The notes under the pieces: generated by a model
Told to the model about the DNA's origin: nothing
What the model saw: the letters and a program-made list of their open reading frames with translations, nothing else
Database searches by the model: none
In this document: positions 7,061 to 39,585 of the stretch, piece by piece
How the letters are laid out: the number at the start of each line of letters is the position of its first letter
How positions within the stretch are numbered: position 1 is the stretch's first letter
UHGV virus genome: UHGV-0104313
Length of the DNA stretch: 64,000 nucleotides
Strand: one strand, 5' to 3'
From: a virus
Translations under genes and position numbers: made by a program

Positions 7061-7989
7061 ACTTCACCCTCGCTTGTATCGCCAGCATCCACCAGCGGCA
7101 ATAAAGCCCTGGCCATCTTATGAACCAATAGTGCATCAATAATGCCAAGCGTATGCCCCGGCTTAATGTTTAATGCCGCCTCAAGGTGACACCTTTCCAG
7201 GCCACTTTTCTCGGCTTGTTTATGATGATCTGGTGTAATAACGTCGCCCAAAACACGGCTAATTCTTTCTCGTAATTGCTGGGTGCCAGCACACTTGATC
7301 GCTGTATCGTGGAGACGGTTAACCAGTTCGCGATAAACATGCGGCTTAATTCGGATACGTTCACCGGTGACGCCCTTTCCTGGTGCTGGCACCGAACTAT
7401 CCGGAATATCCGGATAGTTGCCAGCCTCGTAAGCTACCCGCAGCCAGTGCATGAATGTTTCAGTGGACACACAACCACAGTCCACATCGATTTTCCCGCG
7501 TTGCTGTTCCAGCCATTGCCCAAAATCCAACCTGTAAGTCTTACTTTCAAGTTCATCACCATTGAACTCGACTTTCTGCGACGCTATGAGAGCTGATTCG
7601 TATTGTTCGCGAGTGACAACTGACTGGTATTCATCGCTATCAAGGTCACCAATTGGAAGCTCAATCTCACAACAAAAATTGCGCCCAAAGAAAGTGTCTT
7701 TTTTGTGGTCTGAGCCAAAAGCAAAAGTCGCGCATGGTGCCATTAAATTGACACTGGGTAGGTAACAATAACTCATTCCATCAGGCCACCCGCCGCACTT
7801 AGGCAGTTCCTTCACTAACAAGTCGATAAACTTCATTTTTTTATCATCTTTGCAAGCCGCCAAAGCCATTTGGGCAAGTGCCAATACTTCATCTGCCGTA
7901 TATCCAGCACCGTGACCATACATTTCGATACGGGAAATAATCTCTGATATACGCTCTTCAGTGATTCTGGTCATTTCTTTTTGCGCCAT
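7057..7989 (-). CDS. hypothetical protein, 310 aa
   Basis: ORF track; long ORF with 4-bp overlap to neighbour. Confidence 0.5.
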   Translation of the reverse strand: MAQKEMTRITEERISEIISRIEMYGHGAGYTADEVLALAQMALAACKDDKKMKFIDLLVKELPKCGGWPDGMSYCYLPSVNLMAPCATFAFGSDHKKDTFFGRNFCCEIELPIGDLDSDEYQSVVTREQYESALIASQKVEFNGDELESKTYRLDFGQWLEQQRGKIDVDCGCVSTETFMHWLRVAYEAGNYPDIPDSSVPAPGKGVTGERIRIKPHVYRELVNRLHDTAIKCAGTQQLRERISRVLGDVITPDHHKQAEKSGLERCHLEAALNIKPGHTLGIIDALLVHKMARALLPLVDAGDTSEGEV

Positions 7990-34923: not shown

Positions 34924-35138
34924 TTATCCACAGCATAGATCCAATAAACAGATCCCAAAGAGAACCTAGGAAGATCCAAAGAAGATCCCGGATCGCTGTA
35001 AGCCGCGCCGTTCATGGCCTGAAACGGGATCAACATTGACTATACGCGATTTTATGTTGACTGTGTGCGATTTTATGTTGACTGCACGCGATTTATTGTT
35101 GACTATACGCGACAGAAACGTTGACTGTACGCGATTTT
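34924..35138. other. plasmid replication origin (oriR-like): DnaA box, five GATC sites, five direct iterons
   Basis: TTATCCACA at ~34924; GATC at ~34938, 34951, 34973, 34984, 34991; five ~19-bp TTGACT(A/G)T(A/G)CGCGATTTT repeats at ~35036-35138. Confidence 0.7.
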
Positions 35139-35215
35139 AGAGCCTGAATATTCACAGCTGTTGATAACAGTCATCTAAATTAACGCCAGGCCGCGCCACA
35201 CATGGAGAAACCACG

Positions 35216-36100
35216 ATGCCGGAAGAAAGTAAAGGCTTCCTTAGCGTTGAAGAAGTTGCAGGAAATACAGGAGAAATCCACAGCCTGAAGCCCAATAACA
35301 ACAGCACTATACAACCCATAGCTTTGTTGCGCTTAGGTGTGTTTGTGCCAACCTTAAAATCTACCAATGTGGCGCTACGTCGCGGATCGTCAGTTACAAC
35401 AAACACAACGAACGCAACCGAAGAACTATCAAGCCTCAAAATTGTTGAGCAGGAAGGCTATGAGGGAATTGAAATTCATGGTCCACGCCTGGATATGGAT
35501 ACTGATTTTAAGGTGTGGGTGGGCATAACCTCCGCGTTGTTTGACTATGCTCCTGATGATGACGGCATAATCACCCTGCCATTCTCCGAGTTTGCCGATC
35601 GATGCGGCTATCCACGTAAGCGCCTTTCAAAGGCGTTCCGTAAAAGTATTGATGACTCTCTGACACGCATTCAGCAGACAGTTGTCAAATTCCGCTTCCC
35701 GGCGGCAAAAGGTCATCTCAATAACATTAACGTCAACTTGTTGGCATATAGCAGCCTGAATACCGAGCTTGATGTTATCGAGATCCAGCCGCAAAAACAG
35801 CTATCTGAACTTTACTATGTTGACTATAAGCGAATCCTGAAGCTGAAGATGCTGGATAAGCTCGGGCGCAAAGAGACGGCCAAGGTGCTGTATACATTCT
35901 TTGAGGCTCTACCCGCCAACCCGGCACCTGTCAGCATTGAGCGCCTTAGAGCAAGGCTTAATCTCAAATCATCCGTTAGCGTGCAAAATAGCGTTATCAG
36001 AAAAGCCATGAAAGATTTGGAAGCTATTGAATATCTTAAATTTTCAGAGATAAAAAACGGCAGAAAAATCGGCTTCCAGATCCATAAGCGCAATCCATAA
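35216..36100 (+). CDS. repA: plasmid replication initiator RepA, 294 aa
   Basis: LRLGVFVP..., GPRLDMDTDFKVW..., YTFFEALPANP...RLRARLNL match the P1 RepA pattern; flanked by iteron arrays. Confidence 0.8.
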   Translation: MPEESKGFLSVEEVAGNTGEIHSLKPNNNSTIQPIALLRLGVFVPTLKSTNVALRRGSSVTTNTTNATEELSSLKIVEQEGYEGIEIHGPRLDMDTDFKVWVGITSALFDYAPDDDGIITLPFSEFADRCGYPRKRLSKAFRKSIDDSLTRIQQTVVKFRFPAAKGHLNNINVNLLAYSSLNTELDVIEIQPQKQLSELYYVDYKRILKLKMLDKLGRKETAKVLYTFFEALPANPAPVSIERLRARLNLKSSVSVQNSVIRKAMKDLEAIEYLKFSEIKNGRKIGFQIHKRNP

Positions 36101-36104
36101 TATT

Positions 36105-36370
36105 GACTATATGCGATAGCGAGAAGTTGACTATAGGCGACATTCGTTGACGCTGGTGGATTTTTGCTGGCGTCAATATTCTGCAAGTCGCTATTGAGAT
36201 GGCTTTTAGGGTCATTTCATCGCGTATAGTCAACGTTTCTCCCGACAATATCTTACATAGTCGATCTTTGGTGGAGTTAAATCGACTACAGTCAACTTTT
36301 GACTGTAGTCACATCGCGCATAGTCAACTATTCACATTAACCTTCGCGCATAGTCAACATTTGCGCGGTT
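36105..36370. repeat. incA-like iteron array (about 8-9 copies of the CGCATAGTCAA-type repeat in both orientations)
   Basis: Repeated (G)TTGACTATA(G/C)GCG / CGCGTATAGTCAAC units directly after the repA stop. Confidence 0.6.
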
Positions 36371-36392
36371 CTCATCAAGCAGTGGTATTGAT

Positions 36393-37202
36393 ATGCAAGA
36401 AGAGAAACAACACTACCTCTACGTTCTGGTGCCAGAGAACGGAGATACTTTTAAAATCGGCATTTCATGTGGTCCATTGGCACGGTTTAAAGGGCTACAA
36501 GTGAGTCCCGATTTTGCGCTTTCACGGGTCTATCGTGGTACACGTTTGGCAATGGTTAATCTTGAGCGGGCTTTACACGCAACCTTTTTCCCCTGGAATG
36601 CGCCGTGGGGGAAAAGCGTCGGTGGCGGGCATACTGAATGGTTTACACGAGAGTGTCTTGATAAGGTTTTGGCTCATATCGAATATCTAAATGATATGTG
36701 GGGAGGGATTCTCGAGCGCATTAAGTCGAATGATTTACTTCAGCGTCCAGTAGATGCTGCTTGCTCTTTCGAAAAAGAGCTGGATGTTACTTCTATCGTG
36801 ACTTTCAAAGATGACGCAGGAATGAGGGACGTGGCTTATGTCTCCATATCTGGCTATGAACCGGACGCGATCCGCGCTCAATGTGAATTGCTGAAAGCAA
36901 TGTTTATGCTTCGGACTAAATATCCCTGGGATACAGGGCGGGTGTGCTTCCCTATGGAAGAGTTAACCGCCACCATTGATTCCCAGCTTTACCACGATAA
37001 TCCAGAGAAGTTTTTTAGCCTTTTAGCCGGTAATGGGCTTAACTGTGTGTCCGGGCTGGGGCGAAGTAGAATCCAACATGCCTCGCTCTTCGGTCCCTTC
37101 TTTTACGATCGACACGGGTACTTTGAGGCTGAACTTCCGGCGCTTACGCGTGCTATAGATACTATCGATTTCGAACGATTATTCGCTGCTCTTAGCAAAT
37201 AA
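36393..37202 (+). CDS. T5orf172-like (GIY-YIG superfamily) domain protein, 269 aa
   Basis: N-terminal YLYVLVPENGDTFKIGIS and GGGHTEWF resemble the T5orf172 signature; own terminator downstream. Confidence 0.5.
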   Translation: MQEEKQHYLYVLVPENGDTFKIGISCGPLARFKGLQVSPDFALSRVYRGTRLAMVNLERALHATFFPWNAPWGKSVGGGHTEWFTRECLDKVLAHIEYLNDMWGGILERIKSNDLLQRPVDAACSFEKELDVTSIVTFKDDAGMRDVAYVSISGYEPDAIRAQCELLKAMFMLRTKYPWDTGRVCFPMEELTATIDSQLYHDNPEKFFSLLAGNGLNCVSGLGRSRIQHASLFGPFFYDRHGYFEAELPALTRAIDTIDFERLFAALSK

Positions 37203-37207
37203 CACTG

Positions 37208-37232
37208 ATGCCCCTGAACGGGGCTTTTTTGT
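37208..37232 (+). terminator. Rho-independent terminator (GCCCCTGAACGGGGC TTTTTT)
   Basis: Stem-loop plus T6 right after the stop at 37202. Confidence 0.55.
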
Positions 37233-37309
37233 GCCTTTCTTGTAACTCTCAATCGTGCAAAATGAACCAAACATGCAGAGAATGCTATGTACAAGCATCT
37301 ACGCATACA

Positions 37310-37360
37310 TTATTATTTTATGCAGCATTTTTAATTAAATTCAAAAATACAGCATAAAGG
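37310..37360. promoter_or_regulatory. par promoter/operator: large imperfect palindrome
   Basis: TTTATGCAGCATTTTTAAT/ATTCAAAAATACAGCATAAA inverted repeat ~15 bp upstream of parA. Confidence 0.45.
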
Positions 37361-37370
37361 ATGACTTTCG

Positions 37371-38567
37371 ATGAGTGATTCCAGCCAGCTTCACAAGGTT
37401 GCTCAAAGAGCAAACAGAATGCTCAATGTTCTGACTGAACAAGTACAGTTGCAAAAGGATGAGCTACACGCGAACGAGTTTTACCAGGTCTATGCGAAAG
37501 CGGCACTGGCAAAATTGCCTCTACTGACTCGAGCGAACGTTGACTATGCCGTAAGTGAAATGGAAGAAAAGGGTTATGTTTTCGATAAACGCCCTGCTGG
37601 CTCTTCAATGAAATATGCGATGTCAATTCAGAACATCATTGACATATATGAACATCGCGGAGTGCCAAAATACCGGGATCGCTACAGCGAAGCGTATGTG
37701 ATTTTCATCTCCAATCTTAAAGGCGGTGTGTCAAAAACTGTATCGACGGTTTCTCTGGCGCATGCAATGCGTGCTCATCCTCATCTTCTGATGGAAGATT
37801 TAAGGATTCTGGTTATTGACCTTGATCCGCAATCTTCAGCAACGATGTTTTTAAGCCATAAACACTCTATTGGTATCGTAAACGCAACATCTGCACAGGC
37901 TATGTTGCAGAATGTAAGCCGTGAAGAGCTGTTAGAGGAGTTTATTGTTCCTTCTGTTGTACCTGGGGTTGACGTTATGCCTGCGTCGATTGACGATGCC
38001 TTTATTGCATCCGATTGGAGAGAGCTGTGCAATGAGCATCTACCGGGTCAGAACATCCATGCAGTCCTGAAAGAAAATGTGATTGATAAGCTGAAGAGCG
38101 ATTATGACTTTATCCTCGTTGATAGTGGTCCTCACCTTGACGCCTTCCTGAAAAATGCTTTGGCCTCGGCCAATATACTGTTTACACCTCTGCCGCCTGC
38201 AACGGTTGATTTCCACTCATCGCTTAAATACGTTGCCCGCCTTCCTGAGTTGGTGAAACTCATTTCGGATGAAGGCTGCGAGTGTCAGCTTGCAACTAAC
38301 ATTGGTTTTATGTCCAAGTTGAGTAACAAGGCAGACCATAAGTATTGCCATAGCCTGGCTAAAGAAGTGTTCGGTGGGGATATGCTTGATGTCGTCCTCC
38401 CTCGCCTTGACGGTTTTGAACGCTGCGGCGAGTCTTTTGACACTGTTATTTCAGCTAACCCGGCAACGTATGTTGGTAGTGCTGATGCATTGAAGAACGC
38501 GCGAATTGCCGCGGAAGATTTTGCTAAAGCAGTTTTTGACCGTATTGAATTTATCAGATCTAACTGA
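37371..38567 (+). CDS. parA: partition ATPase ParA, 398 aa
   Basis: N-terminus MSDSSQLHKVAQRANRMLNVLTEQ recognised as P1 ParA; deviant Walker A KGGVSKT. Confidence 0.9.
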   Translation: MSDSSQLHKVAQRANRMLNVLTEQVQLQKDELHANEFYQVYAKAALAKLPLLTRANVDYAVSEMEEKGYVFDKRPAGSSMKYAMSIQNIIDIYEHRGVPKYRDRYSEAYVIFISNLKGGVSKTVSTVSLAHAMRAHPHLLMEDLRILVIDLDPQSSATMFLSHKHSIGIVNATSAQAMLQNVSREELLEEFIVPSVVPGVDVMPASIDDAFIASDWRELCNEHLPGQNIHAVLKENVIDKLKSDYDFILVDSGPHLDAFLKNALASANILFTPLPPATVDFHSSLKYVARLPELVKLISDEGCECQLATNIGFMSKLSNKADHKYCHSLAKEVFGGDMLDVVLPRLDGFERCGESFDTVISANPATYVGSADALKNARIAAEDFAKAVFDRIEFIRSN

Positions 38568-38583
38568 GGAGTAAGAAACCCCC

Positions 38584-39585
38584 ATGTCAAAGAAAAACAG
38601 ACCAACAATTGGGCGAACCCTTAATCCTTCAATATTAAGCGGATTTGATAGTTCTTCAGCCTCTGGCGATCGAGTCGAGCAGGTATTCAAGTTATCAACT
38701 GGTCGCCAGGCCACATTTATTGAAGAGGTAATACCTCCGAACCAGGTAGAAAGCGATACCTTTGTTGATCAGCATAACAACGGGCGTGACCAGGCATCTC
38801 TTACGCCAAAATCATTAAAAAGTATCCGAAGCACTATTAAGCATCAGCAATTTTACCCTGCAATAGGTGTTAGACGGGCTACAGGGAAAATTGAAATTTT
38901 GGATGGTTCCCGGCGTCGAGCTTCTGCCATCTTAGAGAACGTAGGGTTGCGGGTTTTAGTCACGGACCAGGAGATCAGCGTTCAGGAAGCGCAAAATTTA
39001 GCGAAAGACGTTCAGACAGCATTGCAGCACAGCATTCGAGAAATAGGTCTGCGTTTGATGCGAATGAAAAATGATGGGATGAGTCAGAAGGATATTGCAG
39101 CCAAAGAAGGGCTGTCTCAGGCGAAGGTCACGCGTGCTCTCCAGGCAGCGAGTGCTCCGGAAGAATTAGTCGCCCTTTTCCCTGTTCAGTCGGAATTAAC
39201 CTTTTCGGACTACAAAACGCTTTGTGCTGTTGGCGACGAAATGGGGAACAAGAATTTAGAGTTTGATCAGCTTATTCAAAACATATCCCCGGAAATAAAC
39301 GACATCTTATCCATTGAAGAAATGGCCGAAGATGAAGTTAAAAATAAAATCCTGCGCTTGATAACAAAGGAAGCCTCACTACTCACGGATAAAGGTTCTA
39401 AAGATAAGTCCGTAGTTACTGAATTATGGAAATTTGAGGACAAGGATCGCTTTGCAAGGAAGCGCGTGAAAGGCCGTGCATTTTCTTATGAGTTTAATCG
39501 ACTTTCAAAAGAGCTACAGGAAGAACTCGACAGGATGATTGGGCATATCCTTAGAAAGAGCCTCGATAAAAAGCCGAAGCCTTAA
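38584..39585 (+). CDS. parB: partition protein ParB, 333 aa
   Basis: N-terminus MSKKNRPTIGRTLNPSILSGFDSS recognised as P1 ParB; directly downstream of parA. Confidence 0.9.
   Translation: MSKKNRPTIGRTLNPSILSGFDSSSASGDRVEQVFKLSTGRQATFIEEVIPPNQVESDTFVDQHNNGRDQASLTPKSLKSIRSTIKHQQFYPAIGVRRATGKIEILDGSRRRASAILENVGLRVLVTDQEISVQEAQNLAKDVQTALQHSIREIGLRLMRMKNDGMSQKDIAAKEGLSQAKVTRALQAASAPEELVALFPVQSELTFSDYKTLCAVGDEMGNKNLEFDQLIQNISPEINDILSIEEMAEDEVKNKILRLITKEASLLTDKGSKDKSVVTELWKFEDKDRFARKRVKGRAFSYEFNRLSKELQEELDRMIGHILRKSLDKKPKP

Follow-up and report, generated by a model that had tools for sequence, protein, structure and literature searches.

Locus organization

The window (the whole 64-kb stretch of viral DNA that was analyzed) carries the replication and partition region of a P1-like phage-plasmid. 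On the plus strand this region begins with five direct origin (incC-type) iterons with the consensus TTGACTRTRNGCGA and a spacing of 21-22 bp (35036..35134). They are followed by repA (35216..36100, plus strand), which encodes a p0111-type initiator of 294 aa that is 41% identical to P1 RepA; a value of 42% identity to P1 RepA was reported for RepA_SJ46 (PMC5241659). Two direct incA-type iterons (36103..36140, plus strand) lie immediately 3' of the repA stop codon, and four inverted incA-type iterons (36220..36357, minus strand) come next, the last of which ends about 30 nt before the start codon of the gene described below. The iteron pattern was matched 12 times in the 64-kb window, against 0.34 matches expected by chance, and all 12 are located within 35036-36357. 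One perfect match, TTGACTATAAGCGA, falls inside the repA coding sequence (35820-35833) and is kept in the diverged repA of element L004 (about 7608-7621); RepA might bind this additional site, or the site might act in autoregulation. A second feature of repA is a dip in nucleotide identity between the window and L004 to 48-55% at 35650-35800 (aa ~145-195), compared with 75-90% in the rest of the gene, which suggests a variable or recombined sub-domain of the initiator.

The T5orf172-family gene occupies positions 36393-37202 of the plus strand, from ATG to TAA, and encodes 269 aa, exactly as first described. It consists of an N-terminal T5orf172/GIY-YIG catalytic domain (aa 1-105; 36393..36707, plus strand) with the core residues Y10, K21-I-G23, R31, E58, H62 and G79-x-T81-E82-W-F84, and a C-terminal hypervariable domain (aa ~128-269; 36774..37199, plus strand), a putative DNA-recognition domain with a predicted winged-helix fold that is closest to the WH1 domain of Rep initiators. 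An intrinsic terminator, GCCCC-TGAAC-GGGGC plus a T-run (37210..37232, plus strand), insulates the gene from the par operon. Its G+C-rich hairpin (37210-37224), continued by TTTTTTGTG to about 37232, is the sole strong terminator-like site downstream of the ORF. As the terminator ends at about 37232, the end coordinate 37232 given in the sequence-only reading corresponds to the ORF together with its terminator, and the description there of a 269-aa ORF with its own terminator between the last incA iteron and the parA promoter was borne out. A terminator analogous to that of the window ORF is also found 3' of the homolog in element L080.

The ORF matches PHROG 2876 end to end (E 8.5e-194). Together with the Pfam match, the syntenic full-length homologs (25-44% identity) and an allelic pN/pS of 0.32, this identifies the ORF as a real gene and no chance reading frame.

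Comparison with the reference P1 replicon

According to blastn against P1 (AF234172), the replicon cassette at 35010..37268 (plus strand) is unlike that of the reference phage and is of the p0111 type, with incC iterons, repA, incA iterons, the T5orf172 gene and the terminator in this order. Homology to P1 (98.0%) stops at window position 35009 (P1 62816), inside oriR, and restarts (99.3%) at 37269 (P1 61315), just upstream of the -35 box of Ppar, so that 2,259 bp of the window, the 2.26-kb p0111 cassette, are present in place of the 1,500 bp IncY cassette of P1. The left breakpoint separates the DnaA-box/GATC half of oriR, which is P1-like, from the iterons. Because this breakpoint (35009/35010) is inside oriR and only the iteron half and repA are swapped, conserved and type-specific halves are combined in a chimeric origin. 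The right breakpoint is located 66 bp past the stop codon of the T5orf172 gene, and the first conserved feature to the right of the cassette is Ppar (-35 TGTACA, -10 TATTAT; 37288..37316, plus strand), which is identical to that of P1. The parA-parB partition operon (37371..39585, plus strand; parA from 37371) is of the P1 type, with 99.3% nucleotide identity to P1.

The p0111 replicon shares with the P1/IncY replicon the five origin iterons, repA, an incA iteron array, the P1-type par operon and flanks that are 98-99% identical. It differs in the iteron sequence, in a RepA that is only 41% identical, and in the gene between incA and Ppar, which P1 lacks. In AF234172 no CDS is annotated between incA iteron 1 (61487) and the Ppar -35 box (61296), and a remnant of the T5orf172 gene was sought in this spacer by alignment with zero homology detected. 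With a spacer of just ~190 bp, the junction between incA and parA is as tight in reference P1 as had been expected of a P1-type replicon. The alignment across incA-parA also answers the question whether P1 carries the same gene at this position: it does not. The sequence-only interpretation was partly right. The gene is absent from P1 and dispensable, but it is not a lone insertion, for the whole 35010-37268 cassette replaces the IncY cassette. The base composition of the ORF has no foreign signature and is native.

The cassette is 98.6-99.4% identical in RCS47, SJ46, JL22, phi456 and other P1-like phages. The replicon types p0111 and IncY together define the P1-like phage-plasmids, elements that, in E. 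coli and Salmonella, are major carriers of resistance genes, ESBL genes included. About half of the P1-like phage-plasmids bear this unstudied nuclease gene in their maintenance module.

Distribution and homologs

In PLSDB 401 records contain the ORF, each at 90% identity or more, and 396 contain a RepA of the window type (at least 90% identity); the next RepA relatives in this database are less than 60% identical. The co-occurrence of the ORF and p0111 RepA is roughly 1:1 in about 400 plasmids, no ORF-less (empty) p0111 allele was found among the PLSDB records, and the gene is essentially fixed within the p0111 replicon. A tblastn search of the phage collection gave matches in only 12 records, all of the RCS47/SJ46 type.

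Only three diverged full-length relatives emerged when 5.8 billion proteins were searched by word seeding and 1.84 billion representatives were screened in full with HMMER. The other ~150 HMMER matches share the N-terminal domain only. Scans of genome, viral and metagenome contigs for further family members gave only P1-like loci of the window type, and a final profile search of 5.8 billion proteins yielded zero extra members. All three relatives are encoded in P1-like elements with the gene order repA - iterons - ORF - parA - parB - capsid gene. P0004 (element L004) is accompanied by the same iterons and by a RepA that is 84% identical to window RepA, and its ORF is 44% identical to that of the window. 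P0009 (L078/L079, Salmonella enterica; ORF 27% identical) is encoded in an IncY-like replicon, as judged from a RepA that is 83% identical to P1 RepA and from P1-type iterons. P0011 (L080; ORF 25% identical) comes from an element with a different ParA, whose RepA/iteron type is a third one, at 48% and 43% identity to the others. In all four lineages the ATG is located 17-30 nt past the last incA iteron, on the same strand. The gene is missing from P1/IncY elements, yet it is present in the IncY-like Salmonella element. Since homologs fill the incA-Ppar slot across replicon types, this slot is a long-standing home of the gene family, with P1 as a gene-less form. A more distant T5orf172 relative, carried by a conjugative plasmid, lies in a context that is not rep-adjacent; adjacency to rep is accordingly taken to be specific to the P1-like family.

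Two details were observed around the ORF of the IncY-like Salmonella element: a 10-bp hairpin is formed by the inverted incA iterons directly before it (L078 7922-7949), and a partial iteron-like motif (CAGCACAT..CCTCCCT) is located downstream (L078 8921-8940).

Expression

In none of the four lineages was a consistent sigma-70 promoter or a terminator found between repA and the ORF, and only weak Shine-Dalgarno sequences are present. The gene is probably expressed by low-level read-through from the autoregulated repA promoter across incA, ended by the terminator of the ORF. Read-through is the simplest reading of these signals; with no consistent sigma-70 promoter upstream of the ORF, co-transcription with repA is something we infer.

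The nuclease domain

The T5orf172-like signature that had been noticed near the N-terminus (KIGIS, aa 21-25; GGGHTEWF, aa 77-84) was confirmed by profile search. The protein matches Pfam T5orf172 (PF10544) with 25.5 bits against a cutoff of 20 (E 2e-5), with aa 8-85 aligned to profile positions 2-87 of 101, and 138 of its 144 nearest relatives match the same model. T5orf172, and not the canonical GIY-YIG family (PF01541), is the best model for the window protein. The residues Y10, K21, G23, R31, E58, H62, G79, T81, E82 and F84 are all present, and each is shared by at least 92% of 148 relatives; the catalytic-core residues are invariant across the four P1-like lineages. The predicted fold of the domain is the alpha/beta fold of the GIY-YIG superfamily and matches the GIY-YIG nuclease Slx1. 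An early AF2 model that drew on only 3 sequences reached a pLDDT of 63.5 and was set aside as too weak. The product is taken to be a T5orf172 (GIY-YIG-type) DNA nuclease with putative cleavage activity.

The C-terminal domain

In a model built on a shallow alignment, the fold of the C-terminal domain is nearest to the WH1 domain of Rep initiators and then to generic winged-helix proteins with shorter aligned lengths; a Foldseek search of the PDB returned the same families as weak matches (E at least 0.09). A Pfam scan of the domain gave no Rep3_N or RepA_N match and nothing significant, as did comparison with PDB sequences. The alignment of the C-terminal domains gave a probability of 0.2% against the RepA alignment in hhalign, and when each of the four C-terminal domains was compared with five RepA types by blastp, every E value was at least 0.8.

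Among the nearest T5orf172 relatives the most recurrent partner domains are Rep3_N (WH1; 4 of 144) and Rep3_C (WH2; 2 of 144). The metagenomic fusions P0017, composed of T5orf172(9-95) and Rep3_N(199-338), and P0049, composed of T5orf172(8-90), Rep3_N(196-349) and Rep3_C(363-423), belong to the same T5orf172 sub-clade as the window protein (E 1.6e-9 and 2.1e-6 to the family profile) and have the same arrangement of an N-terminal nuclease and a C-terminal Rep-type winged helix. Their Rep3 domains pass the Pfam cutoffs, whereas the C-terminus of the window protein does not, and neither hhalign nor phmmer detected similarity between this C-terminus and the Rep3 part of P0017/P0049. Because there is no sequence bridge from the Rep3 fusions to the window protein, the domain is assigned with moderate strength as a predicted Rep-like winged helix that may bind DNA. 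Other T5orf172 relatives bear HTH, wHTH, zinc-finger or RHH domains. In P0012 (212 aa) T5orf172 is fused to a MarR-type winged helix and in P0068 (435 aa) to a nucleotidyltransferase domain, which indicates wide domain shuffling in the T5orf172 sub-clade.

Sequence evolution and decay

Between the window and L004 the ORF product is 44% identical, compared with 84% for RepA, 89% for ParA, 67% for ParB and 80% for the capsid protein (gp23). In nucleotide sequence, identity is ~65-70% over the nuclease domain and 30-55% over the C-terminal half with the 3' flank (36700-37300); the divergent stretch is sharply bounded by Ppar on the right. The two C-terminal domains are 32% identical.

In a sample of ~70 close alleles from viral and metagenomic contigs, pN/pS was 0.32 for the ORF (N-terminal half 0.29, C-terminal half 0.34), against 0.023 for repA, 0.004 for parA and 0.055 for parB. 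In most copies the gene is subject to purifying selection. It was nevertheless inactivated independently at least five times among the ~70 copies, and ~14% of the sampled copies are disrupted: Q228* in L022 (phage SJ46) and L063, W68* in L042, S112* in L027-L031 (including pO111_2), a frameshift in L077, and an IS200/IS605-type insertion in L045 (6294-8058) that encodes a TnpB-like protein of 389 aa and a Y1 TnpA of 141 aa and replaces ~229 bp of the T5orf172 ORF. Where the ORF is disrupted, repA, parA and parB are essentially always intact. Since SJ46 and pO111_2 persist as plasmids with the ORF inactivated, the gene is dispensable for maintenance. In a linkage and haplotype search for a recombination hotspot at the ORF, every gene pair in the region was weakly linked (r 0.08-0.28).

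Relation to known systems

T5orf172 genes of Vibrio phage ICP1 are putative homing endonuclease genes (HEGs) that lie beside essential genes and bracket exchanged regions; they decay by frameshifts and stops, and their DNA-binding regions are modular (PMC10448857). In about 87% of T5orf172 HEGs from ICP1 and other phages, the DNA-binding domain is a zinc finger of the CapR/DUF723/DUF4397 kind (Barth, Dunham & Seed 2023, PMC10448857). The gene in the window resembles them in its PF10544 nuclease (with BFVD structural matches), its plan of nuclease plus putative DNA-binding domain, its free-standing position beside essential genes, its site at an exchange boundary, its frequent decay by frameshifts and stops and its modular, fast-changing putative specificity region. 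Unlike these HEGs, it has a predicted winged helix instead of a zinc-finger motif, resides in the plasmid-maintenance module of a temperate phage-plasmid rather than in the genome of a lytic phage, and is fixed in one replicon type and not sporadic; homing is putative for both.

In Odn (ICP1 Gp88) a T5orf172 nuclease is joined to a RepA_N-like DNA-binding domain, and the protein cleaves the origin of a rival element in an iteron-dependent manner (Barth, Nguyen & Seed 2021, PMC8263062); mutation of a conserved Glu abolishes its activity (PMC8263062). Odn itself is among the structural matches of the window protein. Both have a T5orf172 nuclease with the conserved catalytic Glu (E180 in Odn; E82 in the window protein according to the family alignment) and a partner domain related to the DNA-binding domain of an initiator, by predicted fold in the window protein, for which a role in conflict between replicons is likewise proposed. 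They differ in that the DNA-binding domain of Odn is N-terminal, of the RepA_N type and 42% identical to the RepA of its target, whereas the putative DNA-binding domain of the window protein is C-terminal and Rep_3-WH1-like by predicted fold only.

SegA-G of phage T4 and I-TevI are ~220-270 aa long and consist of an N-terminal GIY-YIG domain, a linker and a C-terminal DNA-binding domain; they are associated with intergenic insertion and with local co-conversion of flanking markers. The window protein is similar in size, in the order of a GIY-YIG-superfamily domain, a linker and a putative C-terminal DNA-binding domain, and in the intergenic position of its gene between conserved genes, and differs from them in having neither NUMOD nor Tev-type DNA-binding modules. 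The gene is best filed with the T5orf172 HEG/Odn-like nucleases, in an unusual home, the maintenance module of a phage-plasmid.

Proposed function

The gene most likely encodes a selfish or competitive nuclease and is neither a housekeeping nor a classic anti-phage gene. The best explanation, which we give about an even chance of being correct, is a homing-endonuclease-like, site-specific nuclease acting between elements and belonging to the T5orf172 branch of the GIY-YIG superfamily. This reading is based on the shared nuclease family, the two-domain plan, the position beside essential genes at an exchange boundary, fast and relaxed evolution that is concentrated in the putative specificity domain, and recurrent decay. 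The gene lies between repA/incA and parAB, at the boundary of exchanged sequence, and combines recurrent degeneration (at least five disruptions among ~70 copies) with a pN/pS well above that of its neighbours (0.32 versus 0.055 or less). The product would be a free-standing endonuclease in which the N-terminal catalytic domain (aa 1-105) is joined by a linker to a fast-evolving winged-helix domain, whose resemblance to the WH1 of iteron-binding Rep initiators would provide DNA recognition. Housed in the incA-Ppar slot at the right edge of the replicon cassette of P1-like phage-plasmids, and not required for replication or partition, it would cut the DNA of related co-resident or co-infecting P1-like elements without its allele. 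During recombinational repair the rival could then acquire the nuclease gene together with the replicon cassette next to it (homing, or marker exclusion); alternatively, the rival would be disabled.

A sharper sub-case of the homing-endonuclease-like explanation, which we consider unlikely, is an Odn-like replicon-directed weapon. Here the Rep-WH1-like C-terminal domain would mimic a rival initiator and guide the nuclease to the iterons or origin of competitors, which would be cured or excluded; on this improbable reading the gene would be an incompatibility or exclusion determinant and not a homing element. With an equally low likelihood, the nuclease might be directed at rival P1-like plasmids, or at other iteron plasmids, by way of their origin, their incA iterons or the RepA-iteron complex; curing or forced gene conversion would then drive the wholesale IncY-to-p0111 cassette replacement observed among clinically important AMR phage-plasmids. 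Against it stand the lack of sequence similarity between the four C-terminal domains and the five RepA types (0.2% in hhalign; blastp E at least 0.8) and the difference from Odn, which is 42% identical to its model RepA_N; the evidence from the fold is moderate and comes from a predicted model. A DNA-binding domain homologous in sequence to that of the initiator, as in Odn, was not found, and the resemblance is at fold level only.

The Rep-WH1-like predicted fold would also suit a domesticated DNA-binding accessory of the replicon that modulates RepA/iteron handcuffing, copy number or rep/par insulation, with a nuclease that is inactive or nicking, because WH1 is also the dimerisation domain of Rep_3 initiators. 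The invariant position between incA and Ppar on the same strand and the probable co-transcription with repA agree with such a role, and the domestication of HEGs has a precedent in the PLE CapR, a regulator from the T5orf172 HEG lineage. We nevertheless regard it as doubtful. P1/IncY replicons work without the gene, at least five natural knock-outs (SJ46 and pO111_2 included) persist as plasmids, and the fully conserved catalytic core would be needless in a pure binder; the existence of knock-outs and the ability of P1 to manage without the gene disfavour any housekeeping role. In addition, the C-terminal domains of the window and L004 are only 32% identical although the two elements have the same iterons and RepAs that are 84% identical, which speaks against a domain that recognises its own iterons or RepA, and thereby against a housekeeping accessory. 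The accessory-gene behaviour of the ORF (dispensable, fast-evolving, often lost) would fit a single-gene, abortive-infection type anti-phage effector carried as phage-plasmid cargo; phage-plasmids do carry defence cargo, and nuclease effector domains are common in defence systems. That suggestion, which had been raised in the sequence-only reading, found no support and is rated improbable: none of the 5,027 PADLOC models (PADLOC-DB v2) matched, even at E values up to 1, an NCBIfam scan of the ORF gave no match, and there is no sensor domain or partner gene, the neighbours being repA and parA only. In all four lineages the gene is moreover fixed in one conserved slot of the maintenance module, instead of a variable cargo hotspot, and its family is confined to P1-like elements in searches of 1.8-5.8 billion proteins, unlike horizontally mobile defence genes. 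Disruption of ~14% of the sampled copies and constraint that is relaxed relative to the neighbours could finally point to a decaying, functionless remnant hitch-hiking with the replicon. This is very improbable in view of the pN/pS of 0.32, with both halves well below 1, and of the full-length ORFs with intact catalytic core that are kept across lineages diverged to 25% identity.

If the nuclease is homing or replicon-directed, it would provide a mechanism for sharp, cassette-like replicon swaps, mosaicism and competition between co-resident phage-plasmids, and the concept of Odn/T5orf172 nucleases at exchange boundaries would extend from lytic vibriophage to temperate plasmid-prophages. If it is a weapon in conflict between replicons, ICP1 Odn would have a counterpart borne on plasmids, and phage-plasmid exclusion or incompatibility a new molecular basis. 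If it is merely a decaying selfish gene, it would be ordinary.

Annotation and a minimal derivative

The gene is already annotated in RefSeq (as 'GIY-YIG nuclease family protein'), yet it is functionally unstudied, and no discussion of the T5orf172 gene of the p0111 replicon was found in the literature searched. It is a regular component of a known replicon type; in practice it marks the p0111 cassette cleanly and might serve plasmid curing as a tool or a target. In GenBank the ORF of phage phi456 (OR339795.1, 39982-40788) is called 'terminase small subunit', almost certainly a misannotation, and in MH422554, MH445380 and MH445381 the same ORF is left without annotation. The plasmid pF1200-1 (L003, OY842570.1) is a 17-kb IS-flanked mini-plasmid that keeps only upfA-repA-T5orf172-parAB and a few P1 capsid and sheath genes; typed IncHI1B by MOB-suite, it is a P1-like remnant surviving on the T5orf172-bearing cassette alone.
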